From the NCBI GenBank assembly GCA_044221555.1, contig JBGAOY010000002.1, positions 70,376 to 134,375 of the forward strand: DNA of 64,000 bases, given 5' to 3'. The DNA comes from Acidimicrobiales bacterium. GTDB taxonomy: Bacteria > Actinomycetota > Acidimicrobiia > Acidimicrobiales > DATDAH01. The notes beneath the pieces were generated by a model, which searched no databases, was not told the origin of the DNA, and saw only the letters and a list, made by a program, of their open reading frames with translations. A program made the translations under genes and the position numbers. Below, one piece after another: positions 45,052-58,583 of the stretch. Each line of letters opens with the position of its first letter. Positions within the stretch are counted from its first letter, which is position 1.

Positions 45052-45873
45052 CTAGGAGAGGACCCGGGCCGAGAACCCTCGCACGCCGAGCCAGGTCAAC
45101 ACCGCGGTGAAGGCGGTGAGGGCCGGGTAGATCGCCAGCAGTGACATGTGCGGGCTGTCGGTGAGGGCGGCCCGGAACCCCTCGGCCATGTAGACGAGGG
45201 GGTTCACCAGCACCGCGATCTGGAGCCAGCGGATGGGCTCGAGCGCCGCCCACGAGTAGTAGACGCAGCCGAGGAAGGTGAGGGGCACGAGGATCACCCC
45301 GAACATCACCGGCACCGTGCGGGGCTCGAAGGTGGTGCCGAACGTGAGCCCGAGGGCCGAGCCGGCCACGCAGGCCAGCGGTGCCAGGGTGAGCAGCACC
45401 AGCCAGTCGATGTCGAGGTGCACCGGGGTGGCGGGGACCACCGCGGCGATCGGGAACACGAGCAGCGCCGAGAACAGGCCCTGGACGGCCCCGGCCACGA
45501 TCTTCTCGATGGCGATGAGCGACACCGGCATCGGCGCCAGCACCCGGTCCTCGATCTCGCGGGTGACGCCGAACTCGGTGACCATCGGGAGCGCCACGGA
45601 CTGGATGCCCTGGAAGAAGATCGACAGGGCGACCACGCCGGCGACGAGCAGGGTGGAGAAGTCGGCCGCCGACGCGCCGGTGCCGCCGACGCTCTGGCCG
45701 ATCTTGGGGAACACGTAGGTGAACACGAAGACCAGCAGGAACGGCTGGAGCACCGTGCGGGGGATGAACTCCTTGAGGTTCTTGCGCAGCACGGTGACGT
45801 CGCGCAGCAGCATGGCGCCGAAGGCGGCGCGGGCCGCGGTCGCCGTGGAGCGGGGGTGGGCCGTGTCGATCAC
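45052..45873 (-). CDS. ABC-2-type exporter permease
   Basis: The GTG at 45873 overlaps the ATPase stop (GTGA). 'MLLRDVTVLRKNLKEFIPRTVLQPFLLVFVFTYVFPKIG' is followed by 6 hydrophobic helices. Confidence 0.85.
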   Translation of the reverse strand: MIDTAHPRSTATAARAAFGAMLLRDVTVLRKNLKEFIPRTVLQPFLLVFVFTYVFPKIGQSVGGTGASAADFSTLLVAGVVALSIFFQGIQSVALPMVTEFGVTREIEDRVLAPMPVSLIAIEKIVAGAVQGLFSALLVFPIAAVVPATPVHLDIDWLVLLTLAPLACVAGSALGLTFGTTFEPRTVPVMFGVILVPLTFLGCVYYSWAALEPIRWLQIAVLVNPLVYMAEGFRAALTDSPHMSLLAIYPALTAFTAVLTWLGVRGFSARVLS

Positions 45874-46829
45874 TCGCGGAGCTCCTTGCCCGTCAGCCGG
45901 ATGAAGACGGTCTCGAGGGTGGGCTCGTTGATCGAGAGGTCGGTCACCGAGAACCCACCTTTCTCTGCCGCGGCGACCACGGCGGGCAGGATGCCCTGGC
46001 GGCCGGCCACCTCGAGCTCGATCGTGCCGTCGCCGTGTCGGACCCCGGTGACGCCGTCCACCTCTTGGTGCAGCCAGTCCGACAGGCGGGCCAGGTCGCC
46101 CTCGGCGGACACCGTGACGATGGTGTCGGCCCCCACCGACGCCTTCAGGCCCGCGGCGTGGTCGAGAGCCAGGATCCGGCCCTTGTCCATGATGGCCACC
46201 CGGTCGCAGAGCTGGTCGGCCTCCTCCATGTAATGGGTGGTGAGCAGGATCGTCTGGCCGTCGGCGTGCAGTTGGCGGACCACCTCCCACAGCGCCAGGC
46301 GGCTCTGGGGGTCGAGGCCGGCGGTGGGCTCGTCGAGGAAGAGGATGGCCGGGCGGTGCAGGATGGCCCGCGCCACCATGAGCCGCTGGGCCATGCCCCC
46401 CGACAGGGCCATCACCGGCGCGGTGGCCCGATCGGTGAGGCGGAACTGCTCGAGTGCGCGGTCGGCGGCGGCACGGGCGGCCTTGGCGCTCATGCCGAAG
46501 TACCGGCCGTGGAAGTAGAGGTTCTCGCGGACATCGAGCGACCGGTCCAGCGTGTTGGCCTGGGGCACCACACCGATGGCCTGCTTGGCCAGTGCCGGGT
46601 GGGCCACCACATCGACGCCCCCGACGGTCACGGTGCCGCTGGTGGGCACGACCCCGGTGGTGAGCATGCCGCCGGTCGTGGTCTTGCCGGCACCGTTGGG
46701 GCCGAGCAGGCCGAAGATCTCGCCGCGCCGCACCCGCAGGTCGAGGCCGTCGACGGCCTTGACGCCACCCGGGTACACCTTGGTGAGCCCCTCGGTGATG
46801 ATGACGTCGTCGGCCACGTCCACGAACAT
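45870..46829 (-). CDS. ABC transporter ATP-binding protein (DrrA-like)
   Basis: The start is the ATG at 46829. It has Walker A 'GPNGAGKTT', signature 'LSGGMAQRL' and Walker B 'ILFLDEPT'. Confidence 0.9.
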   Translation of the reverse strand: MFVDVADDVIITEGLTKVYPGGVKAVDGLDLRVRRGEIFGLLGPNGAGKTTTGGMLTTGVVPTSGTVTVGGVDVVAHPALAKQAIGVVPQANTLDRSLDVRENLYFHGRYFGMSAKAARAAADRALEQFRLTDRATAPVMALSGGMAQRLMVARAILHRPAILFLDEPTAGLDPQSRLALWEVVRQLHADGQTILLTTHYMEEADQLCDRVAIMDKGRILALDHAAGLKASVGADTIVTVSAEGDLARLSDWLHQEVDGVTGVRHGDGTIELEVAGRQGILPAVVAAAEKGGFSVTDLSINEPTLETVFIRLTGKELRE

Positions 46830-46907
46830 AGGGGACGAACCCGCCGTCGGCTCGGACACGGTTCGACGGGGTTGCGACAAGTAGACAGCATATGTAACAG
46901 TAGTGCC

Positions 46908-48794
46908 GTGCGGTTCGGGGTGACGCTCGTGGTCTCCTGTCTGCTCGCCAGCACGAGCGTCCCCCTGGTGCACACGGAGCAGGCGGTGGCGGCCACCCGC
47001 CGGGTCGCCACCGCCTCTGCTCCGGCCTCGTGCCGCACCGGCCACGGGGCCGGCACCACCCGTCAGGCGACCATCGCCGACAGGGACGGCGACGGGGATC
47101 TCGAGCCTCGAGGGCCGGAGGGCTACGTCTCGCTGGGCTGGACGTTCGATCCCCATCGTCTCGATGGTCGCTGCCCGTTGACCGCGTTCGTCCAGCTCAC
47201 CGACTTCCAGGTGGTCGACGAGGAGTCACCGGCCCGCGTCGAGATGCTCGACGGGACCCAGCAGGCGCCCGGGGCCGCGCCCTTGAACGCCGCCTACCGC
47301 CCGCAGGAGGCGTTGAGCACCCAGATCGTCGAGTCCATGGTCCGCCAGGTGCGCGGCGTTCGCTCGTCGTTCAGCGGCCGCGGTCCGTCCTTCGCCGTCC
47401 TCACCGGCGACAACGCGGACAACCAGCAGTACAACGAGACCCGCTGGTTCATCGATCTGCTCGACGGTGGCCGCCGCATCGACCCCGACAGCGGTGTGCC
47501 CACGGCCCGGTGCCCCGACGCCGACCCAGCCACGCGGTACGACGGTCCCCAGGGAGGTGGCGGCCCGATCGGGTACTACGACCCGGACGGCGCCGACGAC
47601 GGCACCCAGTACGACATGGTGCCCGACCACCCGGGGCTGCTGGAGCAGGCGCAGCGTCCGTTCCAGGCCACCGGTCTCGGCATGCCGTGGTACTCCGCGG
47701 TCGGCAACCACGACGCGCTGGTGCAGGGCAACAGCCCCAGCGGGTTCGCTGGGCCGCTCGGCCCAGGGGTGGCGGGACCCGATGCGCCGCAGGCATCGGT
47801 GGCCGCCCTCCAGGCGGTGGCGACCGGGTGCGTGAAGGCGACCACGGCGCCGGCATCGCCAACCAGCCTGCTGTCGGTGCTCGCGAACCCGCTGGGCGCA
47901 ATGACGGTCCCTGCCGATCCTCGCCGGTGCCTGCTGGCGGGGGACGACAGCGAAGCCTCGGCCCCGGGCCCCTGCGCAGCAACGAGTTGGATCGACCAGC
48001 ACTTCCGTACCACCTCGTCGCCGGTGGGGCACGGGTTCGCCGCCGGTGCCCACCCCGCCGACCTCCGTGGTTATGGGCGCCCGGCAGTGGCCGACCTCAA
48101 CGACGACGGCTACTACTCCTACCGGCCCGCGTCGGGGCTCCGGTTCGTGGTGCTCGACACCATCACCCACGAGTGCGGGACCGACGTCTGCGCCGAGGGC
48201 TCGCTCGACGACGCCCAGTTCCGCTGGCTCGACGCCCAGTTGCGGGCCGCGGAGGCCGGGAACCAGTACGTGGTGGTGTTCTCACATCACACCGAGGCCA
48301 CCATCCGGTTCCCGTCCACCGACCCGACCGAGGCCCCCCTGCACTTCGGCACCCGGGCCGCCAACCCGGCCACCACCGAATCGCTCGAGGAGCTGCTCTG
48401 CTCGCACCAGCCCACGGTTCTCGCGCACATCGACGGTCACACCCATGAGAACGCAGTCGTGGAGCACCGCTGTGACCAGCTGACCGCACCGCTCCCGGGT
48501 GTGCCCACCGTGGGCGGGTACTGGGAGATCAGCACCGCGTCCCACCTGGACTGGCCGCAGCAGTCCCGGCTGGTGGAGCTGGTCCCGGTGGGTCGTCGCC
48601 ACCTCGCCCTCGTGTGCACGATGGTCGATCACGCCGGCGCCGCCGACCCGTCGGGGGAGCGGGGGGTGGAGCGCCTGGCCTCGATCGCCCGTGCGCTGGC
48701 CTACGCCGACCCGCAGAGCGCGTCATCGGCGCGGGGCGACGCCGTCGACCGCAACGTGATCATCGGCTTCGACCGGCCGCCGCCGACCTCCTGA
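46908..48794 (+). CDS. secreted metallophosphoesterase (TIGR03767-like)
   Basis: The start is the GTG at 46908. The signal-like sequence is 'VTLVVSCLLASTSVPLV'. Motifs are 'FVQLTDFQVVDEESP', 'LTGDNADN', 'AVGNHD', 'VVFSHHT' and 'HIDGHTHEN'. Confidence 0.8.
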   Translation: MRFGVTLVVSCLLASTSVPLVHTEQAVAATRRVATASAPASCRTGHGAGTTRQATIADRDGDGDLEPRGPEGYVSLGWTFDPHRLDGRCPLTAFVQLTDFQVVDEESPARVEMLDGTQQAPGAAPLNAAYRPQEALSTQIVESMVRQVRGVRSSFSGRGPSFAVLTGDNADNQQYNETRWFIDLLDGGRRIDPDSGVPTARCPDADPATRYDGPQGGGGPIGYYDPDGADDGTQYDMVPDHPGLLEQAQRPFQATGLGMPWYSAVGNHDALVQGNSPSGFAGPLGPGVAGPDAPQASVAALQAVATGCVKATTAPASPTSLLSVLANPLGAMTVPADPRRCLLAGDDSEASAPGPCAATSWIDQHFRTTSSPVGHGFAAGAHPADLRGYGRPAVADLNDDGYYSYRPASGLRFVVLDTITHECGTDVCAEGSLDDAQFRWLDAQLRAAEAGNQYVVVFSHHTEATIRFPSTDPTEAPLHFGTRAANPATTESLEELLCSHQPTVLAHIDGHTHENAVVEHRCDQLTAPLPGVPTVGGYWEISTASHLDWPQQSRLVELVPVGRRHLALVCTMVDHAGAADPSGERGVERLASIARALAYADPQSASSARGDAVDRNVIIGFDRPPPTS

Positions 48795-48814: not shown

Positions 48815-49648
48815 TCAGGCGCCGGCGCGGGGTCGTGCTCCGATGGCCAGCCCGCGCACGAGGGAGATGGCGTCGGCGACGTCGGCGGGCAGGGCCTCGA
48901 CCCGTACGTGCCGTCCACCCTGGCCCTGGCCCAGGAGGCCCACTGCGGTGGCCAGGTCCGCCCCCCGGCTCGTGAGGGCCACCATCGTCTGGCTCGACTC
49001 GGTGGGCTCCAGCACCGCCAGCGTGTCGGAGCCCGGGAAGCAGAGACGCAGGTCGCCGGCCAGTCGCAGCCGACGGGCGACCCGGGTGAACGGCGAGGCC
49101 TCGTCCCGGCTGATCTGGGCGACGACCAGGGCGTAGGCATCGGCGGGCGGTGTGCCCAGGTACGAGCAGTGGCGGTAGATCTGCTCGAGGCGGGCCTCGA
49201 GGAACGGTGCCGTCACCAGGCCGGTGAGCTCGTCGATGCAGGTCGGCGGATCGGCGTCGCCGTAGTAGGTCTCGGCCCAGGCGGTGCCCACGGTGGCCGC
49301 GAGCGTCAGGCAGTCCTTGTTCGAGGCGACGGCCGCTCCCGCGGCGGTCAGCACGTCGCAGAACGTGGCCAGGTCGGCGAGGGTGTCGGCGAGCGACACC
49401 CCCGCGGAGGCCCGCGCCTCGCCGAGACGCACGAGGGCCGGGCGGACGTCCTCGCCCCGGAGGGCGCCGAGCAGCAGGTCGGTGGTGACGGGATGGTGCC
49501 AGTGCTGGCGACTGAGGCCCACCCGCTCGCGGCTGAGCCGCCCCCACTCGTCGTGCAGCTCCGCCGCGGCGCTCGGCGCGCTCCGTCGACTGCGCAGGTC
49601 GATGACCTCGTTGCCCGTGGTGCTGCCTGTGCCGTTGCCGGTGCTCAT
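48815..49648 (-). CDS. degenerate GGDEF-like protein, paralog 1 (277 aa)
   Basis: The start is the ATG at 49648. 'CIDELTGLVTAPFLEARLEQIY' resembles the start of a GGDEF domain. 'CFPGSDTLAVLEP' sits where R-x-GGDEF-avll would be. It aligns block by block with the 55423-56289 product. Confidence 0.6.
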   Translation of the reverse strand: MSTGNGTGSTTGNEVIDLRSRRSAPSAAAELHDEWGRLSRERVGLSRQHWHHPVTTDLLLGALRGEDVRPALVRLGEARASAGVSLADTLADLATFCDVLTAAGAAVASNKDCLTLAATVGTAWAETYYGDADPPTCIDELTGLVTAPFLEARLEQIYRHCSYLGTPPADAYALVVAQISRDEASPFTRVARRLRLAGDLRLCFPGSDTLAVLEPTESSQTMVALTSRGADLATAVGLLGQGQGGRHVRVEALPADVADAISLVRGLAIGARPRAGA

Positions 49649-49785
49649 CGGTGTGCTCGCTCCCGTCGTCGTCGTGTGGGGAGAGAGAGCCGGCGCAGGG
49701 CCGATCGTCACGCCGGTCGACCGAGATTTTCGTGGTCGCCCCTGGCCGCTGCCGGACGCTTCCGACCGCGTGCCGGGCACGGGGC

Positions 49786-52116
49786 TCAGGGCGATCGCAC
49801 CTCGATCGGCGCCGGCGGCGGGGCCGCGCCGCCCTGGCGGCGTTCGGCGGCGTCGGCCAGGAGCGCCGCGAGTGGTGCCGGCCGGGCGTAGAGGAAGCCC
49901 TGGCACAGGCGGCAGCCGAGCGTGGCCAGCACCTCGTCCTGCTGGGCGGTCTCGACACCTTCGGCGACCGCGGTCAGTCCCAAGGCCTCGGCCATCCGCA
50001 ACACGGCGCGCACGATGGCGCGGTCCTCGGTGTTCTCGGCGACCCCGTCGATGAACGAGCGGTCGATCTTCAGGGCGTCGACGCGGAAGCGGCGCAGGTA
50101 GGACAGTGAGGAGTACCCGGTGCCGAAGTCGTCGATGGCCAGGCGGATGCCTCTGGCCCGGAGGGCATCGAGGGTCGCGAGCGCGGCGGACGCGTCGTCC
50201 ATCAGCGTGCTCTCGGTCAACTCGAGCCACAGCTTGTCTGCCTGCAGGCCCGACGTGTCGAGGGCCTCGTGCACCGTGGTGGCGAGGCCGGGGTCGGCCA
50301 ACTGGCGGGCCGACAGGTTCACCGCCAGCGACACCTCGGCCAGATGGGGCACCTCGGTCTGCCAGCGGACGGCGTCGGCGCAGGCCTTGTCGAGCACCCA
50401 CGCCCCGATGGGGACGATGAGGCCGGTCTCCTCGGCCACCTCGATGAACTCACCCGGGTAGACCAGGCCCCGTTCGGGGTGGTTCCACCGCACGAGGGCC
50501 TCGATGCCGATCACCGCTCCGGTCGGCGACCAGACCGTGGGCTGGTAGTGGAGCACGAGCTGACCGGCGGGCAGCGCGGCGCGGAGCGCCTGTTCCGTGC
50601 GCAGCCGGTGCTGCATGCGGTCGCGAAGGGTCTGGTCGAAGTGCTCGACCCGTGCCCGTCCCCGCTCCTTGGCGCGGTACAACGCCACGTCGGCGTCGCC
50701 GAGGACGTGCTCGGCGATCGCGGCCTCGAACCCGCGGGCGATGCCGATGCTGGCGGTGATGCGGGTGTCATGGCCGTTGATGTCCATCGGCGCGGCGATG
50801 GCCTGGGCCATCCGCGCCGCCACCTCGTCGGCCTCGACGGCGTCGAGGCCTTCGCACAGCACCACGAACTCGTCGCCGGAGAGCCGACCGACGGTGTCGG
50901 TCGGGCGGATGCAGGCGTGGAGGCGGGCGCCCACCTTGATGAGCACCCGGTCACCGCGCTGGTGGCCCAGGAAGTCGTTCACCAGCTTGAAGCGGTCGAG
51001 GTCGACGAAGAAGACCGTGACGGGGAGCCCCGAGCGGCTGGCCCGCGCCAGCGCCCCTTCGAGGCGGTCGAGCACGAGGGTGCGGTTGGGCAGGCCGGTG
51101 AGCTGGTCGTGCGTGGCCCGGTGCACGGCATCGTCGAGTGCCTGGGCCATCGCTCGGCGCGCGGCATCGTCGTTGAGCGCGAGCGAGACGTGCTCGGCGA
51201 ACAGCAACAGGACATCCTGTTCGTGCTTCGAGAAGCTGCGGTCGTGCTCGCGCGTGCTGACGACCAACGCGCCGGCCACCCTGCCGTCCTGGAACACGGG
51301 CGCCGCCATCGCGGCCTGGAGGCCGACGACCGCGAGGCGGGGGTCGCCGGCGTCGTCGTCCTCGTAGTGCGGGGCCACGACGAGGCGCTGCTCGAGGATG
51401 GCCCGACCGCTCACGCCCACCGTCACCGGGCGCAGCCGGTCGAAGTCGGCGCGATCGGCGCCGGCCAGGGCCACGAGCTCGGACATGGTGGGGTCGCCGG
51501 GCAGGACGAGCCGTACGCCGACCGCGTCGGTGCCGCCCATCAGCGCCCGTGCACCGGTGGCGACCGCGTCGAAGATCTCCTCGGTGGGGATGCGCTCGGC
51601 GATGGAGTGCTGGATCGCCAAGAGGTGGGCCAGGAGGGCACGCCGCTCCTCGAGGTCGGCCAGCAACCGCGAGGCGTCGGCTCGAGCCGTGGCCTCGGAG
51701 CGAGAGAGCCGCAGGAGCTGGACGACGAGGGCGAGGACTCGGCCCATGCCCCGGAGCAGGGCGTGCTCCTCGCCGGTGAACGGAGGGCCGGACCGGCCGA
51801 GGACGAGTGCCCCACGGGGCTCGACGTCCAGGGGGACCACCAACGCGGGGCACGTCCCGCACCCGGGGACCTCGATGGCGCGGACCGTGCCCATCGCGGC
51901 GGCCTGGAGCTCGCCGGCCGCCGGCCCGGCCGCCCCGTAGCCGACCGCGACGACGACGTCGCCGTCGGTCGACAGCAACGCGCCGACCTCGGCGTCGACT
52001 GCCTCGGCGGCGCGTTCGACCGCGGCCTGGAGCAGTGACTCCTCGTCAGCCGTCGCCGTGACCACCGCCACGAACTCGGCGAGCTGGAGGACCGACCAGT
52101 GGCTGGACGTGTCCAC
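49786..52116 (-). CDS. GAF-GAF-GGDEF-EAL c-di-GMP turnover protein
   Basis: The start is the GTG at 52116, 4 nt after the FIST stop. Diguanylate cyclase motifs are 'HDQLTGLPNR' and 'RPTDTVGRLSGDEFVVL' (RxxD I-site plus an SGDEF variant). EAL-domain motifs are 'IEALVRWNHP', 'DDFGTGYSSLSYL', 'LKIDRSF', 'AEGVET' and 'CQGFLYARP'. Confidence 0.9.
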   Translation of the reverse strand: MDTSSHWSVLQLAEFVAVVTATADEESLLQAAVERAAEAVDAEVGALLSTDGDVVVAVGYGAAGPAAGELQAAAMGTVRAIEVPGCGTCPALVVPLDVEPRGALVLGRSGPPFTGEEHALLRGMGRVLALVVQLLRLSRSEATARADASRLLADLEERRALLAHLLAIQHSIAERIPTEEIFDAVATGARALMGGTDAVGVRLVLPGDPTMSELVALAGADRADFDRLRPVTVGVSGRAILEQRLVVAPHYEDDDAGDPRLAVVGLQAAMAAPVFQDGRVAGALVVSTREHDRSFSKHEQDVLLLFAEHVSLALNDDAARRAMAQALDDAVHRATHDQLTGLPNRTLVLDRLEGALARASRSGLPVTVFFVDLDRFKLVNDFLGHQRGDRVLIKVGARLHACIRPTDTVGRLSGDEFVVLCEGLDAVEADEVAARMAQAIAAPMDINGHDTRITASIGIARGFEAAIAEHVLGDADVALYRAKERGRARVEHFDQTLRDRMQHRLRTEQALRAALPAGQLVLHYQPTVWSPTGAVIGIEALVRWNHPERGLVYPGEFIEVAEETGLIVPIGAWVLDKACADAVRWQTEVPHLAEVSLAVNLSARQLADPGLATTVHEALDTSGLQADKLWLELTESTLMDDASAALATLDALRARGIRLAIDDFGTGYSSLSYLRRFRVDALKIDRSFIDGVAENTEDRAIVRAVLRMAEALGLTAVAEGVETAQQDEVLATLGCRLCQGFLYARPAPLAALLADAAERRQGGAAPPPAPIEVRSP

Positions 52117-52120
52117 CCTG

Positions 52121-53350
52121 CTATCCGATGGCGAGGACCACGAGGGTTTGGTTGTGGAGCCCGCTCTGACCGTGGGTCCGGGCGATCTCGCCGTAGGTGT
52201 AGAAGCCCGCCACCGGCGCACCCTCGGCGATCGTGGTGATCCGCTCCACCTCCCGCTGGATGCCGTGCTCGCCGAGCACACCCCGCCGGCCGATGCAGTC
52301 GAAGGCCAGCAGCCCGAGCGGAGGCTGACCGTCGAGGCTGGCCAGCGCGTCGCGGCACGCGGTGGCCGACGCCTCGAGCACCGACGCCTCGTCGCCCTCC
52401 ATGGCCCAGGTGAGACCGCCCTGGGGCACCTGCCCCGCGCACACCAGGGCCCGCGCCTCGAAGTCGGCCTCGTTCACGCAGCGCACCTGCTCGCCGCGTC
52501 GCCGCTGGAGCCCGAGCGGGTGCGTGGTGGCGAACCGGGTGAAGGCGGCCGCGTCGTGGCCGGCGTCGGGTGGGGCACCGAGGCGTTCGAGGTACACGTC
52601 GAGCGCGGGCTGGTCGTCGAGCTCGAGCACCCGGTTGTCCTCGCTGGCGGTGACGAGCAGCGGGTCGCCCACGCGGCTCCAGCCGTGGCGCACACCGATG
52701 CCGAACGGCGCGTCTGACGAGATGGCCGCGGCGACCACGCTGTGGCGCAGCACGTCGGGCCCGTGGAGCTGGACGGTCTGTTCCATGCGGAGGCCGTCGC
52801 CGGCACAACCGCCGACGAGGGGGAGCGCGGCGCCGACCTCCTGGTAGGCCCCCCGCACGATCTCCTCCATGTCGCCGCCGAGGCCGTCGGTGAGCAGGAG
52901 GAGCAGGCGGTGGTCGCCTGGTGGCAGGTCGGCCGCACACCGGGCCGCCACGGCGCTGGCATCACGGAGGCCGAGGTCGGCGGCGTTGGCGGCACCTGTG
53001 GCCACGCGGAAGCCGGGGCCTCCGAAGGCGGTCACCACCACCGACGCGTCCCCTGCGCCCGCCATCGATATCTCGCCGGCGGTGGAGCACCCGATCAACG
53101 CCACGTCGTCGTCGACCGACCGCACCCCGTCGAGCAGGGCCTCGTGGTCGTAGCCGTCCCAGCAGAACACCACGAGCAACGCGGCGTCGTCGTGCAGGAG
53201 GGCGTCGCGGGCGGCCTCGGCGCCGGCCGTGCGCGCGTCGGTGGCGTTGCCACGTCCCACCCCCACCCACCGCGTGGGCCCGGGCACCCGCGGGCGGTGC
53301 CCCTCCATCGTGGTCGTGCCGGCCTGATCGGTCGAACCCGTTGCAGCCAT
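52121..53350 (-). CDS. FIST-domain sensor protein
   Basis: The start is the ATG at 53350, with GGGGAGG upstream. 'ALLVVFCWDGYDHEALLDGVRSV...LIGCSTAGEI' is FIST_N-like, and 'LLAFDCIGRRGVLG...VAGFYTYGEIAR' is FIST_C-like. Confidence 0.8.
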   Translation of the reverse strand: MAATGSTDQAGTTTMEGHRPRVPGPTRWVGVGRGNATDARTAGAEAARDALLHDDAALLVVFCWDGYDHEALLDGVRSVDDDVALIGCSTAGEISMAGAGDASVVVTAFGGPGFRVATGAANAADLGLRDASAVAARCAADLPPGDHRLLLLLTDGLGGDMEEIVRGAYQEVGAALPLVGGCAGDGLRMEQTVQLHGPDVLRHSVVAAAISSDAPFGIGVRHGWSRVGDPLLVTASEDNRVLELDDQPALDVYLERLGAPPDAGHDAAAFTRFATTHPLGLQRRRGEQVRCVNEADFEARALVCAGQVPQGGLTWAMEGDEASVLEASATACRDALASLDGQPPLGLLAFDCIGRRGVLGEHGIQREVERITTIAEGAPVAGFYTYGEIARTHGQSGLHNQTLVVLAIG

Positions 53351-53463
53351 GCCGCCTCCCCTGTGAGCGCGCCCCCGCGAAGGGTACGACACCCGGGCCG
53401 CTACCGCAGGTAGGCCCATCGGGTGGACCGTCGCGGCCGACGCCGAGGTTGCGGCGGCCCCGG

Positions 53464-55389
53464 TCAGGGTGCGCCGAGGGGGAGCGGCGGTGGTTGTGGG
53501 AGCGGCGGGAGCGGCGGGAGCGGCGGGACGGTGACGGGGGGGAGGGTCGGTACCGTCACCGGTGGCACCGTCACCGGCGGGACGTCGATCGGTGTGCCCG
53601 TGCCCCCGCTGCCTCCGGTCCCGCCCGTCGAACCGGTGCCTCCGGTCCCGCCCGTGCCGGTGGTGCCCCCGGTGCCGCCGGACCCGCCCGATCCGGGAAC
53701 GCCAGAGGTGGCGCCGTCCAGCAGGCCGTTGACCGTGCCCGCGGCCCCCGCCACCGCGGCCGACCCGAGGCCGCTGAGATCAGTGCCGAGCGCTCCCGCG
53801 GCCGTCGCACCCGAGGACAGGGTGGCCGCCAGCGTCGCCCTGGCGGTGCGGAGCGTGGTGTGCACCACGTCGCCGAGCAGCGTGAACGGCTCGTCGACCA
53901 CGACGAAGACCAGGTCGTCGACGGACGTGGCGGCCGACGGCAGGTAGCCGACCAGCAGGCGCCAGGGCCCGTCGCCGGCCAGGAGCGACGCGGTCGGGAC
54001 GCTGACGCAGGAGGCGCCCCCCGACGGGCTGTCGCCGGTCGTGCCCACGTCACCCGCGCCGCCGGCGCCGCGTGTGACGCCGGCGCCGGTCGTGGTGACC
54101 AACGAGCGCAGGGTGGTAGCGGTGGCGCCCCGCACCGTGGTGACCAGCGAGGAGGGGTCGAGCGCCGGGATCCCGGCGATGTCACCGCGGAACAGCACGG
54201 CGCGCACGACGGACCCGCCCGCGCCCTCCGTCGCCCCCGAGGTGGCGCCGGTGAGGGCCACGCCGACGGCGTCGTCGCACCGCCGATCGGCGACGGTCTG
54301 CACCCGCACGTCGCCGGGCAGGGTCAGCGCGACCGGCGCGGCGGCGGCCGCGGTGCCGCCACGGGGCCCGCCGGCGGCTGTCGTCGGCTCACCGGCGGTG
54401 GCGGGGCCAGCGGTGGTCGACGCCGCGTCCCGGGTCGAGTCCGGGACCGGAGGCGTCGCGTCGGTCTGCAACAGGAGCAGCGCGACGGCGAGCGCGACCG
54501 ACGTCGCGATGACGGCGGCTCGCTGCGCCGAGCCTCTGAGGCTCTCGACGATGGCGGCCGTGGCGGGCGCATCGGCAGTGGCCCGGCGGCCGAGATAGGC
54601 CGCGGCGGCGGCACCCAGCACCAACGGTGCCACCACCGAACGGAGCGAGCGATTCAGGTCGCTCATCTCGGACCGGAGCGTGCGGCACCGCGGGCAGGTC
54701 TCCAGGTGGGCGTCGGCTTTGGCGCGGTCGCGCCGGCCCAGGTTGTCGCGGACGAGCGCGCCGAGTCGCTCGACGGTGAAGGCGCACCTGGCGGGCGTGT
54801 CCGACTGCAGGTGGGCCTGCAGGTACGCCTCGCGCAGGCCCTCCCGCGCCCGGTGGGCCAGTGCCGCGGTGGCGTGGGGGCTCAGCCCGACGAGCGGGGC
54901 CACGTCGGCGGGCGGTGCGCCCTCGATCTCGGTGTGCCAGAGCACCAGTTGCCACCGCTCGGGCAGGCGTGAGTACGCCTGGGCCATGAGCCGGCCATCG
55001 GTGCCGTCGGGGTCGAGGACCGCACCGTCGAGCGTGCCGTCGGTGGGGTCGGCAGGCTCCTCACGATCGCGGGCGGCACGCCAGTGACGACGGCGCAGGG
55101 TGGTGAGCAGGTAGGGCCGGAACGCCTCGGTGGGGCCGGCGCCGTTGTGCAGCGCCGCCAGCACGGCGGCGAACGAGTCGCTCACCAGGTCGTCCGCCGC
55201 GGCGCGCGACCGCACGAGTTGGCGGGCGAGGCGGCGGGCGGCCGGCTCGTGGCGCCGGTACAACTCGGCGTACGCCCCCGAGTCGCCCGCTCGTACCCGG
55301 TCGAGCAGCGCGGCGTCGGAATCGTTCGCGAGCGCGGGCGTCGCCACGTCGGACCGATGCCGCAGTTCGCTGAGGACGGTGGTGCTCAC
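53464..55389 (-). CDS. ECF sigma factor fused to a ZAS-type anti-sigma motif, two TM helices and a long low-complexity ectodomain
   Basis: Sigma region 2 reads 'LLDRVRAGDSGAYAELYRRH...DLVSDSF'. Region 4 reads 'LPERWQLVLWHTEIEGAPPADVAPLVGLSPHATAALAHRAREGLR'. Next comes 'C-x27-HLETCPRC' (H-x3-C-x2-C). The TM helices are 'VVAPLVLGAAAAAYLG' and 'AAVIATSVALAVALLLL'. The C-terminus is Gly/Thr/Ser-rich and carries PPVTV/PPLP repeats. Confidence 0.8.
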   Translation of the reverse strand: MSTTVLSELRHRSDVATPALANDSDAALLDRVRAGDSGAYAELYRRHEPAARRLARQLVRSRAAADDLVSDSFAAVLAALHNGAGPTEAFRPYLLTTLRRRHWRAARDREEPADPTDGTLDGAVLDPDGTDGRLMAQAYSRLPERWQLVLWHTEIEGAPPADVAPLVGLSPHATAALAHRAREGLREAYLQAHLQSDTPARCAFTVERLGALVRDNLGRRDRAKADAHLETCPRCRTLRSEMSDLNRSLRSVVAPLVLGAAAAAYLGRRATADAPATAAIVESLRGSAQRAAVIATSVALAVALLLLQTDATPPVPDSTRDAASTTAGPATAGEPTTAAGGPRGGTAAAAAPVALTLPGDVRVQTVADRRCDDAVGVALTGATSGATEGAGGSVVRAVLFRGDIAGIPALDPSSLVTTVRGATATTLRSLVTTTGAGVTRGAGGAGDVGTTGDSPSGGASCVSVPTASLLAGDGPWRLLVGYLPSAATSVDDLVFVVVDEPFTLLGDVVHTTLRTARATLAATLSSGATAAGALGTDLSGLGSAAVAGAAGTVNGLLDGATSGVPGSGGSGGTGGTTGTGGTGGTGSTGGTGGSGGTGTPIDVPPVTVPPVTVPTLPPVTVPPLPPLPPLPQPPPLPLGAP

Positions 55390-55422
55390 AGACGCCTGCT
55401 CCGCTCGACGGCCGCCCTGGCG

Positions 55423-56289
55423 TCAAGGATGACGGAACCCGCCGTCGGGCGCAATGGTGAAGCCCCGGGGGATCGTCGCGAGCTCGCGCACGAGGGCCAC
55501 GGCCTCACCGGCGGTGGCCGGCAACTGCTCCACCCAGACCGCGTCCTGGGGGCACTCGGCCCTCAGGACGGCCACGTCGTCGGCCAGGGAGGGCCCGCAG
55601 TCGGTCAGCACCACCATGGCGTCGGTCGGCTCGAGCAGCGCCACGGTGTCGCCCTCGGGAAAGGCGGTGCGGAGCCGGCCGGCCGCATCGATGCGCCGGG
55701 CGACGCAGGCGAAGGGTGACCGGTCGAGGCACTGCACCTGCAGGACCACCAGCACCTGCTCCCGCTCGGCCTTCCGGCCGTTGGCCGCGCACTGGTGGTA
55801 GCGCTGGCTCAGGCGCGCTTCGAGGAACGTGCCGGTCACGAGGCCGGTGATCGGGTCGGTGCATCCGGGCGCCACGATGTCCGAGTAGAAGGCCTCGGCC
55901 CACGCCGTGCCGGCAACCGATGCGGCGTCGAGGGTGTCCACCCGCCCGAGGGCGGTGTCGCCCGGCTCGGGGGCGCCCGCCGGGACGAGCTCCGCAAGGA
56001 CGCCCAGGTCGGCGAGCAACTCGTCGAGTGAGAGGCCGGCGCCGGCCCGTGCCTGCCCGAGCCGCTCCAGGGCCGGCTCGAGGTCGACGCCGGCGGCGAT
56101 GGCGTCGACGAGGTCACACGTGGCGGGGTGGTACCACTGCTGGCGGCTGAGGCCGAGCCGCATGCGGCTCGTCGCGCCCCAGCGGTCGTGCAGGTCGTCG
56201 AAGGTTGCCGCGTCGGTGGGCTCGCCGAGGTCGAGCAGGATGCCCTGGTCGCGCTGCTCGGTGGGCTGGGTGTGATGGGTGATCGCCAT
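55423..56289 (-). CDS. degenerate GGDEF-like protein, paralog 2 (288 aa)
   Basis: The start is the ATG at 56289, with AGGAGG 8 nt upstream. It has 'CTDPITGLVTGTFLEARLSQRY' and 'AFPEGDTVALLEP'. Its stop lies 33 nt upstream of the sigma gene start. Confidence 0.6.
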   Translation of the reverse strand: MAITHHTQPTEQRDQGILLDLGEPTDAATFDDLHDRWGATSRMRLGLSRQQWYHPATCDLVDAIAAGVDLEPALERLGQARAGAGLSLDELLADLGVLAELVPAGAPEPGDTALGRVDTLDAASVAGTAWAEAFYSDIVAPGCTDPITGLVTGTFLEARLSQRYHQCAANGRKAEREQVLVVLQVQCLDRSPFACVARRIDAAGRLRTAFPEGDTVALLEPTDAMVVLTDCGPSLADDVAVLRAECPQDAVWVEQLPATAGEAVALVRELATIPRGFTIAPDGGFRHP

Positions 56290-56412
56290 GCCGTCTGCCT
56301 CCTGTGAACGGTTCTGGAGGCTGGGAGCCACGGCACCCACGATCGTCACGCCACTTCCGCGGAAAAATCTCCCTCGGCTGCGACCGCTCCCCGTCGGATG
56401 CTTCTGGGTGGG

Positions 56413-56979
56413 TCAGGTGGGCGCGGCCTCGAGGCCGGCGGTGATCGACACGGCCAGGTCGCGCGCCAGGTCGGCCGGTCGGTCGGCCGGCGGGTTGACC
56501 ACCCAGCTCACGATGAGCCGCGTGACGCTGTCGGCCGCCCGCCGGGCCTTGGCCTTGGTGACCCGCGGGCATCGGGCCAGCAAGAGGTCGGCGACCGCTG
56601 GGGTGGCCGCCGACAGCACCGGCGCCTGGTCGGACATCAGGAACGGCAGCACCCGCTCGGGCTCGGTCTCGAGCAGTCGCCCCAACAGCGCGTGCTCACG
56701 GGCGGCCACGAGCGTGGCCAGGATGGCCGCCTCGAGCGCCTCGCGGGCCGACTGGTGGGTGCTCCCTGCCGAGGTGACCACGGCGAGCAGGGCCTCCTCC
56801 TCCCGGAGGATGACCGCGGCGACCACGTCGTCCTTGGTGCGGAAGTAGCGGTACAGGGTCTGCCGCGACAGCCCGGCCCGGCGGGCGACGTCCTCCAGCG
56901 ACAGGCGGGCGATGCCGAACACCGCGATGGCTTCGAACGCCGCGTCCAGGATCCGGCCTCGAGTGTCCGCCGCAGGCAT
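56413..56979 (-). CDS. TetR-family regulator (first of tandem pair)
   Basis: 'RGRILDAAFEAIAVFGIARLSLEDVARRAGLSRQTLYRYFRTKDD' is a TetR HTH. The ATG at 56979 is preferred over the TTG at 56988. Confidence 0.85.
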   Translation of the reverse strand: MPAADTRGRILDAAFEAIAVFGIARLSLEDVARRAGLSRQTLYRYFRTKDDVVAAVILREEEALLAVVTSAGSTHQSAREALEAAILATLVAAREHALLGRLLETEPERVLPFLMSDQAPVLSAATPAVADLLLARCPRVTKAKARRAADSVTRLIVSWVVNPPADRPADLARDLAVSITAGLEAAPT

Positions 56980-57011
56980 CGACGTCAACGTACCCGAGGG
57001 CCGACCCGGAG

Positions 57012-57587
57012 TCAGGCTCGCGGCGCCACGGACTCGGACACGACCCCGCTGAACACGAGGCGGACGAACCAGTCGGCGAACGCGTCCGGTGACTCCTCGA
57101 AGGGGTCGAGCACGTAGCTGATGATCAGCCGGCTCAACACGTCGGCGGTGCGGCGCAGGTCGTCCTCGGCCATCCCGGGCACGAGGTGGCGCAGCAGTCC
57201 GGCCAGGTGGCGGTCGGTGGACGGTCCGGGCAGCGACCCCACCGTGAGGTAGGGGATGAGGGTCTCGGGCTCGGTCTCGAGCAGCCGTTCGATCAGGGGA
57301 TGGGTCCGCACCCCGTCGAGCGTGGCGACGATCGCGGCGCGCAACGCGTCGCGGGGCTCCCGGGCGTCGCGGGTGGCGTCGCGGATCCGCTCGCGGAACC
57401 GGCGCTCCTCCCGATCGACGACCGCGTCGAGCAGGTCGACCTTCGAGGGGAAGTACCGGTACAGGGTCTGGCGCGACAGGTGGGCGCGCTTGGCCACGTC
57501 GGCCAACGACAGCCGGGTGATCCCGTACACGGCCACGGCGTCGTAGGCCGCGTCCACGATCTGACGGTGTGTGCCCTTCTCGTCCAT
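57012..57587 (-). CDS. TetR-family regulator (second of tandem pair, paralog of 56413-56979)
   Basis: 'HRQIVDAAYDAVAVYGITRLSLADVAKRAHLSRQTLYRYFPSKVD' is a TetR HTH. The gene is divergent from the mce operon. Confidence 0.85.
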   Translation of the reverse strand: MDEKGTHRQIVDAAYDAVAVYGITRLSLADVAKRAHLSRQTLYRYFPSKVDLLDAVVDREERRFRERIRDATRDAREPRDALRAAIVATLDGVRTHPLIERLLETEPETLIPYLTVGSLPGPSTDRHLAGLLRHLVPGMAEDDLRRTADVLSRLIISYVLDPFEESPDAFADWFVRLVFSGVVSESVAPRA

Positions 57588-57598
57588 CTGGAAAGATG

Positions 57599-57623
57599 TT
57601 ACACTATCTGTAAACCTGTTACA
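57599..57623. promoter_or_regulatory. putative TetR operator: three alternating half-sites TTACA-N5-TGTAA-N5-TTACA in the only AT-rich patch of the tetR/mce intergenic region
   Basis: The half-sites are at 57599-57603, 57609-57613 and 57619-57623. Together they form two overlapping palindromes, including CTGTAAacctgTTACAG. A TACAGT (TANNNT) -10-like hexamer lies at 57620-57625. Confidence 0.5.
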
Positions 57624-57680
57624 GTACGTTCGTCGGGCGGGACACCAGGACCGGGCAGGGGCTCGGCGGGGAAGGGGACC

Positions 57681-58583
57681 ATGTCAGTGCTCACCAGGAA
57701 CAGCAACAGGGTGGCGATGCCGGAGTCGCCGCCCGCGCCCGAGGGCGTGATCTCCTTACGGGGGGTGACGAAGTCGTTCGGCTCGCACACCGTGCTCGAG
57801 GACATCAGCTTCGACGTCCCCAAGGGGGAGATCAGCGCCATCATGGGCCCGTCGGGGACGGGCAAGTCGGTGCTGTTGAAGAACATCATCGGGCTGCTGC
57901 GGCCCGAGCGGGGCGAGATCTTCGTCGACGGCGAGCAGATCGTGGGCATGCGCGAGAAGGACCTGATGCGGGTCCGGCGCAAGATGGGCGTGCTGTTCCA
58001 GGACGGCGCGCTGTTCGGGTCGCTGAACCTGTTCGACAACATCGCGTTCCCGCTCCGTGAGCACACCCGCAAGACCGAGAAGGACATCCGCGACATCACG
58101 TTGGCCAAGGCCAGCCTGGTCGGGCTGCTCGACCACCTGAAGAAGTTCCCGGGCGAGGTGTCGGGTGGCATGAAGAAGCGGGCCGGGCTGGCGCGGGCGC
58201 TGTCGATGGACCCCGAGATCGTCCTGTTCGACGAGCCCGACTCGGGCCTCGATCCCGTCCGGGTGAGCTACCTCGACGAGTTGGTGAAGAAGACCCAGGA
58301 GGAGACGGGCGCCACCTTCTTCATCATCACCCACAACATCCCCTCGGCCATGCGCACGGCCGACCACATCGGCGTGCTCTTCCGCTCGGGCCTGGTCCGG
58401 TTCGCCCCCAAGCAGGAGATGGTGGACAGCGAGGACCCGATCATCCAGCAGTTCCTGGCCGGACGGGCCTTCGGCCCCATCGGGATGGACGAGTTGGCCA
58501 CGGAGGAGACCGACGTGGAGAAGGAGCTGGTCGCCCGGGCGCAGGCCCGCTCCGCCGCCGGCACGGAGCACCTCCCGGTCTGA
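57681..58583 (+). CDS. mceG: Mce-system ABC ATPase (MceG/Mkl, MlaF-like)
   Basis: It has Walker A 'GPSGTGKS', signature 'VSGGMKKRAGLARAL' and Walker B 'VLFDEPDSGLDP'. It sits first in the yrbE/mce operon. Confidence 0.85.
   Translation: MSVLTRNSNRVAMPESPPAPEGVISLRGVTKSFGSHTVLEDISFDVPKGEISAIMGPSGTGKSVLLKNIIGLLRPERGEIFVDGEQIVGMREKDLMRVRRKMGVLFQDGALFGSLNLFDNIAFPLREHTRKTEKDIRDITLAKASLVGLLDHLKKFPGEVSGGMKKRAGLARALSMDPEIVLFDEPDSGLDPVRVSYLDELVKKTQEETGATFFIITHNIPSAMRTADHIGVLFRSGLVRFAPKQEMVDSEDPIIQQFLAGRAFGPIGMDELATEETDVEKELVARAQARSAAGTEHLPV

Follow-up and report, generated by a model that had tools for sequence, protein, structure and literature searches.

The window analyzed here, a 64,000-nucleotide (nt) stretch of an Acidimicrobiales genome (contig JBGAOY010000002.1, positions 70,376 to 134,375), contains a minus-strand gene cluster in which an extracytoplasmic function (ECF) sigma factor, fused in cis to an anti-sigma domain of the ZAS type, is accompanied by two degenerate, GGDEF-like paralogs, par1 and par2. 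Our comparative analysis revealed that the conserved unit is a two-gene pair, the sigma–ZAS fusion and a pseudo-GGDEF partner, which is widespread in Actinomycetota. The duplication of the partner, the adjoining TetR genes, the Mce operon context, and the FIST and GGDEF–EAL genes found in the same cluster are specific to the clade of the window. We propose, with moderate confidence, that the pair constitutes a one-component sigma factor of the ECF48/52/53 type together with a conserved, probably sigma-dependent pseudo-GGDEF product that serves as its output, its feedback modulator, or both, and that, in the clade of the window, the sigma operon gained the partner gene, the partner was duplicated, and the FIST and GGDEF–EAL genes were inserted.

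The pairing is apparent from the side of either gene. Compared loci are labeled L001 to L019 and onward, with L001–L010 belonging to the Acidimicrobiales clade and L011–L019 to distant lineages. In all eight distant lineages (L011; L012/13; L014, Cellulomonas xiejunii; L015, Jatrophihabitans; L016; L017; L018; and L019), the family gene is divergently adjacent to a gene for a Sigma70_r2/r4_2 and zf-HC2 fusion of 446–1315 amino acids. From the sigma side, a scan of metagenomes recovered 520 sigma–ZAS relatives, the best 80 loci of which form the wider set. At 58 of these 80 loci the family gene is located 148–525 nt upstream of the sigma–ZAS gene, divergently oriented at 57 and co-directional at one. 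The other 22 loci lack a family match; at eight of them the upstream sequence is too short for a judgment, and the remaining 14 truly lack the gene even at relaxed thresholds, yielding co-occurrence at 58 of 72 informative loci (~81%). Each partner-bearing locus has a single family copy, and homologs of FIST, GGDEF–EAL, TetR1/2, or MlaE were detected at none of the 80. At several loci without the partner, purK directly takes its place, and the neighborhood is that of L017 and L018 minus the family gene, indicating that the partner was lost or gained in place. The initial annotation had linked the paralogs to the sigma–ZAS fusion, and this link holds in every family context examined as well as at most informative sigma-side loci. 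The association is asymmetric, in that the family was never seen without the sigma gene and the sigma gene sometimes occurs without the family, which would suit a partner or target that depends on the sigma factor better than an activator that the sigma factor requires. Outside the clade of the window, the pair is found in core-genome surroundings, near purK–purE (L017, L018, L062, L065, and L080), upp (L014 and L019), or pheA (L015 and L019).

Within the clade, arrangements were established from context look-ups and tblastn mapping. The closest relatives are metagenome-assembled genomes labeled uncultured Microthrixaceae/Acidimicrobiales, represented by L008 (~90–98% protein identity), L009, and L010. 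The window and L008 share a complete order, in which the Mce operon diverges from TetR2, TetR1, par2, sigma–ZAS, FIST, GGDEF–EAL, and par1. L001 displays TetR1, par2, sigma–ZAS, and FIST up to its contig end; L002, L003, and L005 carry TetR2, TetR1, par2, sigma–ZAS, and par1, followed by unrelated genes; L006 has TetR2, TetR1, a single paralog, sigma–ZAS, and Usp genes; and L009 has TetR2, TetR1, par2, sigma–ZAS, unrelated genes, and an ABC transporter. A paralog and the sigma–ZAS gene are both present at every clade locus in which both positions are visible, with the paralog gene upstream (L001, L002, L003, and L005–L010), and TetR1 precedes par2 at all eight loci where that position can be seen. 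Orthologs of par1 occur in L008 and L002–5. The FIST gene is restricted to the window, L008, and L001, and the GGDEF–EAL gene, among clade loci extending far enough, to the window and L008; both are missing from L002–5, L006, and L009, which keep the paralog and sigma genes, in part with par1. Hence, the invariant core of the clade is a paralog plus sigma–ZAS with TetR1 upstream, and par1, FIST, and GGDEF–EAL are each dispensable. The five genes had been put forward as one module whose synteny should be conserved. Such conservation exists for the paralog–sigma core and fails for the five-gene set, given the absence of FIST and GGDEF–EAL from these sister lineages and from all 80 wider loci, and the bracketing of the sigma gene by two paralogs is likewise limited to this clade. 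Between lineages (the window compared with L001, L002, and L009), par2 and sigma–ZAS are 50–60% identical, and their flanks are more similar (TetR1, 85–88%; FIST, 89%; MlaE, 95%). Judged by these identities, the sigma/partner pair is evolving unusually fast.

The window has a G+C content of 73%, and codon-position G+C was inspected because spurious long open reading frames (ORFs) are common in such DNA. All five minus-strand ORFs are coding by this measure, with a G+C fraction of 0.91–0.94 at third (GC3) and 0.48–0.64 at second (GC2) codon positions; their starts and stops are intact, and the L008 orthologs align from residue 1. In gene order, they encode par2 (55423–56289; 288 residues, GC3 0.93), the sigma–ZAS fusion (53464–55389; 641 residues), the FIST protein (52121–53350; 409 residues), the GGDEF–EAL enzyme (49786–52116; 776 residues), and par1 (48815–49648; 277 residues, GC3 0.92), separated by 33, 113, 4, and 137 nt. 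The ORFs, coordinates, strand, and gaps given in the initial annotation are all correct, and Pfam and NCBIfam uphold its domain assignments of GAF–GAF–GGDEF–EAL, FIST_N/FIST_C, and ECF sigma plus zf-HC2. Simple scans for terminators and sigma-70 promoters, and folding of intergenic RNA, gave nothing above shuffled controls, and operon boundaries were therefore inferred from gap sizes.

The sigma–ZAS fusion consists of the ECF sigma factor, the ZAS domain, a membrane anchor, an Ala/Gly/Thr-rich region, and a Pro-rich tail, the last 80 residues of which include 21 Pro and 22 Gly. It scores above threshold with Sigma70_r2 (39.3 bits, cutoff 24) and with the sigma70-ECF model TIGR02937 (44.8 bits, cutoff 42.9). 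Sigma70_r4_2 is weak in the window protein and clear in its orthologs, and the sigma4 helix-turn-helix (HTH) segment is invariant across the orthologous group. The protein thus has sigma2 and sigma4 regions only and matches the ECF superfamily model, as an ECF sigma factor does. The zf-HC2 model matches at 28.1 bits (cutoff 22.2), and the motif C202...H228-x3-C232-x2-C235, with its first Cys 26 residues upstream of H228, is invariant in 12 orthologs, features of a ZAS domain for which zinc binding is predicted. Hydropathy analysis identified one strongly hydrophobic segment, at residues ~288–312. A second stretch, at residues ~248–269, is moderately hydrophobic and contains the conserved sequence DxNxxLRSV[IV]APL[VI]LG; rather than spanning the membrane, it may form the final helix of the anti-sigma domain. 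The in-cis fusion of an ECF sigma factor to an H-x3-C-x2-C motif, as first described, therefore stands, and the two transmembrane helices described with it are uncertain. Beyond the transmembrane segment, Pfam detected no further domain in the window protein, including no carbohydrate-binding module, and orthologs carry DUF11/CLIPPER or DUF3344 extensions or nothing. All sigma–ZAS proteins paired with pseudo-GGDEF proteins belong to one orthologous group, defined by invariant LPERWxxVLW, AREGLRxxYL, and C-x25-HLxxCxxC motifs in addition to the shared segment at ~248–269. At one locus represented twice, the fusion was called as two genes of 460 and 553 residues (L012, 4935–7989) and as one gene of 1023 residues (L013, 4918–7989), and the L010 match is split over two frames; these split calls stem from frameshifts or misassembly of the repetitive extension.

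The partner is less readily classified. Par1 and par2 share 47% identity over 247 residues (E 2e-62), with par1 forming its own subfamily and being absent from some members of the clade. Neither protein scores above threshold with any Pfam or NCBIfam model, and PF00990 does not match. Par1 shows sub-threshold similarity to PF17853, GGDEF_2 (E 0.005, 17.5 bits, cutoff 24.5), par2 shows none, and such similarity is seen in 7 of 45 family members. Their GGDEF-like identity consequently derives from a fold search and a profile comparison rather than from a curated model. The AlphaFold2 model of par1 (pLDDT 83.8) comprises a helical N-terminal domain and an alpha/beta C-terminal domain, and its best 30 Foldseek matches in the Protein Data Bank (PDB) are all diguanylate cyclases or GGDEF domains, with TM-scores of 0.47–0.57 against isolated domains; as a whole protein, the model resembles DgcZ, SiaD, DgcR, PleD, and WspR. 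Comparison by hhalign of the family profile with the genuine GGDEF domain of the neighboring enzyme (E 7.8e-5, probability 62%) pairs DELTGLVTA with DQLTGLPNR, VVAQISRD with FFVDLDRF (AQIS opposite DLD), PGSD with RPTD, and LEPT(ESSQ) with SGDEF. According to this alignment, the C-terminal domains of par1 and par2 have lost the A-site, the metal-binding Asp, the guanine-binding Asn, and the I-site Arg. Across the family, the A-site hairpin varies in length and sequence, and the I-site position, PGSD in par1, PEGD in par2, and xGGE in the consensus, never conserves the Arg and keeps an acidic residue (D/E in 'GGE-T' or 'GSD-T'). Fold, profile match, and loss of catalytic residues together bear out the view that the paralogs are catalytically dead GGDEF-like proteins.

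Par2 is predicted to be cytoplasmic, with a six-helix N-terminal bundle preceding its degenerate GGDEF-like domain. Modeled in isolation, the N-terminal domain is a confident six-helix bundle (pLDDT 92.9). A Foldseek search of the PDB with this domain gave no significant match, the best being globins, including the globin-coupled-sensor domain of BpeGReg, at E-values of 0.6 and above. A haem-binding globin is unsupported, given this best E-value of 0.6 and the absence of a conserved His in the family. A DNA-binding HTH at LGEARAxAGVSLxETLxDL is judged unlikely, as the second helix is acidic and includes an invariant Asp, and neither Pfam nor the fold search supports it. The close family is rare, with 13 clusters among 5.8 billion proteins and three loci in 185,579 species genomes. 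An exhaustive profile search recovered a wider family of 639 cluster representatives of ~250 residues, 370 of them at E ≤ 1e-10, without Pfam assignment and including proteins of Cellulomonas xiejunii, Jatrophihabitans sp. DSM 45814, and Antricoccus sp.; a word-indexed homolog search with the broad family profile gained little.

A promoter-like element accompanies the partner genes. The upstream regions of par1 and par2 have in common the 13-mer GGCGTGACGATCG, which has no further exact copy in the window, each with an A/T-rich block ~19 nt further upstream. The element of par2 (56340–56369, minus strand) reads GATTTT-N13-CGTGACGAT and lies ~50 nt 5′ of the ATG; that of par1 (49702–49731, minus strand) reads GAAAAT-N13-CGTGACGAT, lies ~53 nt 5′ of the ATG, and is kept upstream of par1 in L008. 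The pattern G[AG]WW[ATC]Y-N10-16-CGTSAYGAY matches twice in the window against 0.24 expected, both times upstream of the paralogs, and in 16 loci the bipartite pattern matches only upstream of family genes. When 39 unique intergenic regions between divergent gene pairs were compared, enrichment was highest for the k-mer GCGTCA[CT], which 30 of them contain on the strand facing the family gene, and alignment of sites from the wider set yields GAAWTTC-N~8-(GAAC)G-GCGTSAY-GRT(T), again with the A/T-rich block at a fixed distance. The element carries an A/T-rich block on just one of its sides and is thus asymmetric; its distance and orientation are fixed relative to the family gene. As a TetR1 operator it can be dismissed, for it persists in loci without any TetR. 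Because of this asymmetry, the fixed orientation, and its presence without TetR, we read it as the promoter of the family gene. Its shape can be read as ECF-like, either as GGAAT-N19-G(T/A)T, which resembles promoters of the ZAS-regulated SigR/SigH type, or as a −10 of the CGTC type whose spacing is unusually short. A second motif, GTGCCGGTTC-N8-GATC-CGTCAC-ACT, faces the sigma gene in L030, L034, L042, L046, L047, L048, and L074.

How do the FIST and GGDEF–EAL genes relate to this pair? The FIST protein matches FIST_N (E 2e-45, 155.5 bits) and FIST_C (E 2e-29, 102.8 bits); it was considered as a NosP and rejected, scoring 120.7 bits against a cutoff of 450 with the NCBIfam equivalog NF041558. 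The enzyme, encoded 4 nt further on, contains two GAF domains, a GGDEF domain (E 5e-43, 147 bits), and an EAL domain (E 1e-75, 254 bits). Sequence and Pfam confirm the SGDEF site, RxxD I-site, and intact EAL motifs noted earlier: the A-site is the variant SGDEF, the I-site is RPTD five residues upstream, and the EAL catalytic set is complete (EALxR, N, ELTE, DDFGTG, KID, EGVE, and QG). From these motifs the enzyme is probably bifunctional. Both genes are clade-specific accessories, and any connection of the pair to cyclic dimeric GMP (c-di-GMP) is a local add-on because they form a clade-specific insertion. Involvement of c-di-GMP as an output, whose genes would be expressed together with the sigma gene and which would act below the sigma factor or in parallel with it, is more plausible than a role as an input that gates sigma release.

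In conjunction, these observations lead us to the following model. The sigma domain would be held inactive in cis at the membrane by its own ZAS domain, with the variable tail on the extracytoplasmic side. Its release, for which proteolysis is the proposed route in the ECF48/52/53-type class (PMC8999054, PMC5826349), would permit transcription from the conserved element. The pseudo-GGDEF protein would be a conserved product of the sigma factor, acting as output and/or exerting feedback on the sigma/ZAS module. In the clade of the window, the partner gene appears to have entered the sigma operon at a position preceding the sigma gene, a move that would render the circuit self-amplifying; the partner would also have been duplicated, with par1 carrying its own copy of the element, and the FIST and GAF–GGDEF–EAL pair would have been placed between par1 and the sigma gene by an insertion.

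Several observations weigh against this model. The sigma factor that uses the element is inferred from position and shape only. The distance from the A/T-rich block to the CGTC (~12–13 nt) is shorter than in typical ECF promoters, the GGAAT-N19-G(T/A)T reading fitting better, and the GCGTSACG core is nearly palindromic and could thus be an operator. Enrichment of the CGTCAY motif that faces the sigma gene is confined to partner-bearing loci (30 of 56, versus 4 of 14 without the partner), which is not what simple sigma autoregulation predicts. A search for sigma–ZAS columns conserved only in the presence of the partner returned one weak, uninformative column, leaving physical contact between the two proteins unsupported. 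Transcription units and terminators are not definable at the locus, and the loss of canonical motifs may be compatible with non-canonical nucleotide binding by the partner.

The initial annotation had proposed a role for par1 and par2 as adaptors that sense c-di-GMP or GTP and thereby control whether the sigma domain is released. In this scheme, whose logic is like that of RsiG–WhiG, the c-di-GMP level would be set by the adjacent FIST and GGDEF–EAL proteins. The linkage of partner and sigma factor is very strong, the enzyme and FIST genes reside inside the cluster with short gaps, an arrangement that L008 retains and L001 retains in part although par2 and sigma–ZAS have diverged by ~40%, and the acidic I-site residue is retained; moreover, degenerate GGDEF domains are nucleotide receptors in other systems. 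However, neither FIST nor GGDEF–EAL accompanies the pair in the sister lineages (L002–5, L006, and L009) or at any of the 80 wider loci, and no RsiG-, BldD-, or PilZ-type c-di-GMP motif was found in the five proteins, the RsiG pattern having been sought by regular expression, including a relaxed form. With these motifs, the A-site, the I-site Arg, and the metal- and guanine-binding residues all missing, nucleotide sensing by the paralogs is left without sequence support, and we regard the sensing-adaptor proposal as very unlikely. Nor can the partner be a universal gate, because ~19% of the orthologous sigma–ZAS genes have no partner nearby. That figure also counts against a second proposal, in which the partner is a protein-only modulator of sigma/ZAS, a co-anti-sigma or anti-anti-sigma factor engaged in partner switching and needed post-translationally rather than as output. 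GGDEF-type domains are known as dimerization scaffolds, the family depends strictly on the sigma gene in all contexts, and the faster evolution of par2 and sigma–ZAS relative to their flanks is compatible with co-evolution, but no sigma–ZAS column is informatively conserved in a partner-dependent manner. We consider this proposal improbable as an alternative, and it is compatible with our model, since a feedback modulator can also be a target of the sigma factor.

It is also conceivable that the element is an operator through which the divergent sigma gene is regulated, either by the pseudo-GGDEF protein or by a factor that works together with this protein. The divergent orientation at 57 of 58 wider loci, the near-palindromic core, and the partner-dependent enrichment of CGTCAY on the sigma side all speak for this possibility. 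Against it, Pfam and NCBIfam detect no HTH or DNA-binding domain in the family, the N-terminal domain has no DNA-binding fold match, the sole HTH-like stretch is unlike a recognition helix in its acidic second helix and invariant Asp, and the element is asymmetric with fixed distance and orientation to the family gene. On balance, we think an operator unlikely. Similarly speculative is a further reading, in which the pair is a phylum-wide unit whose pseudo-enzyme, by means of a new six-helix, sensor-like N-terminal domain, physically modulates sigma release or activity, and in which duplication and the recruitment of FIST and GGDEF–EAL in the clade of the window cross-wire ECF and c-di-GMP signaling. 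Possible routes would be dead heterodimers with the GGDEF domain of the enzyme or a relay of the enzyme's state to the ZAS domain. This reading, too, is doubtful; if it is true, ECF signaling and c-di-GMP turnover would be directly cross-wired in this clade.

Fusions of an ECF sigma factor to a ZAS domain and a transmembrane segment have already been described as the ECF48, ECF52, and ECF53 groups, with SCO4117 of Streptomyces coelicolor as the studied example (PMC5826349, PMC8999054). As in the window, these are actinobacterial proteins with ECF sigma2–sigma4, zf-HC2/ZAS, a transmembrane segment, and a long Pro-rich extension (PMC5826349, PMC8999054). The window protein appears to possess the ECF52 architecture of ECF, ZAS, transmembrane segment, and Pro-rich extension, and by its features ECF52, ECF48, and ECF53 would be equally possible assignments. 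SCO4117 also has a co-directional TetR gene directly upstream (atrA/SCO4118), comparable to TetR1 before the module of the window. Unlike SCO4117 and ECF52, the window protein has no detected carbohydrate-binding module, and a pseudo-GGDEF gene separates the sigma gene from the TetR gene. A GGDEF-like neighbor goes unmentioned in the main texts and reviews that were consulted, and a prior description in the ECF group definitions is possible. The fusion architecture is thus known, and the pairing with a dedicated pseudo-GGDEF partner was not found described in this literature.

Other systems share single features with the pair. ECF41, reportedly studied by Wecke et al. in 2012, is said to combine a sigma factor bearing a fused regulatory domain with a conserved neighboring 'COE' target gene that has a group-specific promoter. 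The resemblance lies in a one-component ECF with an in-cis extension and a single conserved neighbor under an ECF-type promoter; ECF41 is a different ECF group, its extension is soluble and SnoaL-like in contrast to the ZAS domain and membrane anchor seen here, and its neighbor is an oxidoreductase or epimerase instead of a pseudo-GGDEF protein. RsiG–WhiG of Streptomyces likewise links c-di-GMP to a sigma/anti-sigma pair in an actinobacterium, but WhiG is not an ECF sigma factor, and RsiG is a separate coiled-coil anti-sigma factor with paired E(x)3S(x)2R(x)3Q(x)3D motifs, whereas the anti-sigma domain here is a fused ZAS. The succession of a helical N-terminal domain and a GGDEF fold recalls the globin-coupled BpeGReg and DosC as well as DgcZ; unlike globin-coupled sensors, the par family has neither a conserved haem-ligating His nor a PF00990 match. 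Receptors of the PelD/PopA type keep RxxD, whereas par1 and par2 have lost both A-site and I-site. GGDEF_2, the domain of PucR/CdaR-type regulators, is the only Pfam model with any similarity to the par family, albeit below threshold, and the par proteins differ in lacking the C-terminal HTH of PucR and in their N-terminal domain.

The surroundings of the cluster were inspected as well. Directly upstream of par2 lies TetR1 (56413–56988, minus strand; TetR_N and TetR_C_35 by Pfam), followed by its paralog TetR2 (57012–57587, minus strand; Pfam), which diverges from the Mce/MlaE operon. TetR2 is a context gene and probably the regulator of that operon, which consists of an ATPase, two MlaE permeases, and MlaD/Mce genes; the TetR2–Mce synteny is present in L002, L006, L008, and L009. 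A 190-residue ORF of high GC3 (57599–58171, minus strand) is probably spurious and antisense within the Mce-associated ABC ATPase gene (57186–58583, plus strand), and in L002, L006, L008, and L009 the regions matching it by tblastn overlap with ABC_tran, which is annotated on the other strand. At the other end, a gene for a secreted, TIGR03767-like metallophosphoesterase of ~628 residues (46908–48794, plus strand; 287 bits, cutoff 330; motifs GDNADN, GNHD, and GHTHEN) converges with par1, the stop codons being 20 nt apart. This region is a clean ~1.95-kb indel relative to L008, in which an ABC ATPase gene follows par1 after 55 bp. Downstream of the cluster, an ABC-2 type exporter (45052–47156, minus strand) comprises an ATPase with a DrrA-like C-terminal domain and an ABC2_membrane permease; ortholog alignments and the GC3 profile indicate that the listed ATPase ORF is ~100 codons too long at its 5′ end.

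If the c-di-GMP-to-sigma idea were true, it would matter only for one Microthrixaceae-like clade. The par family itself represents a new family of GGDEF-derived pseudo-enzymes in which even the I-site has been lost. Fusions of the ECF48/52/53 type are common in Actinomycetota, and SCO4117 is their only studied member. The partner gene and its conserved promoter-like element provide a handle on this class, in the form of a candidate reporter promoter and a candidate regulator or output protein, and the pair is present in cultured hosts, namely Cellulomonas xiejunii and Jatrophihabitans sp.

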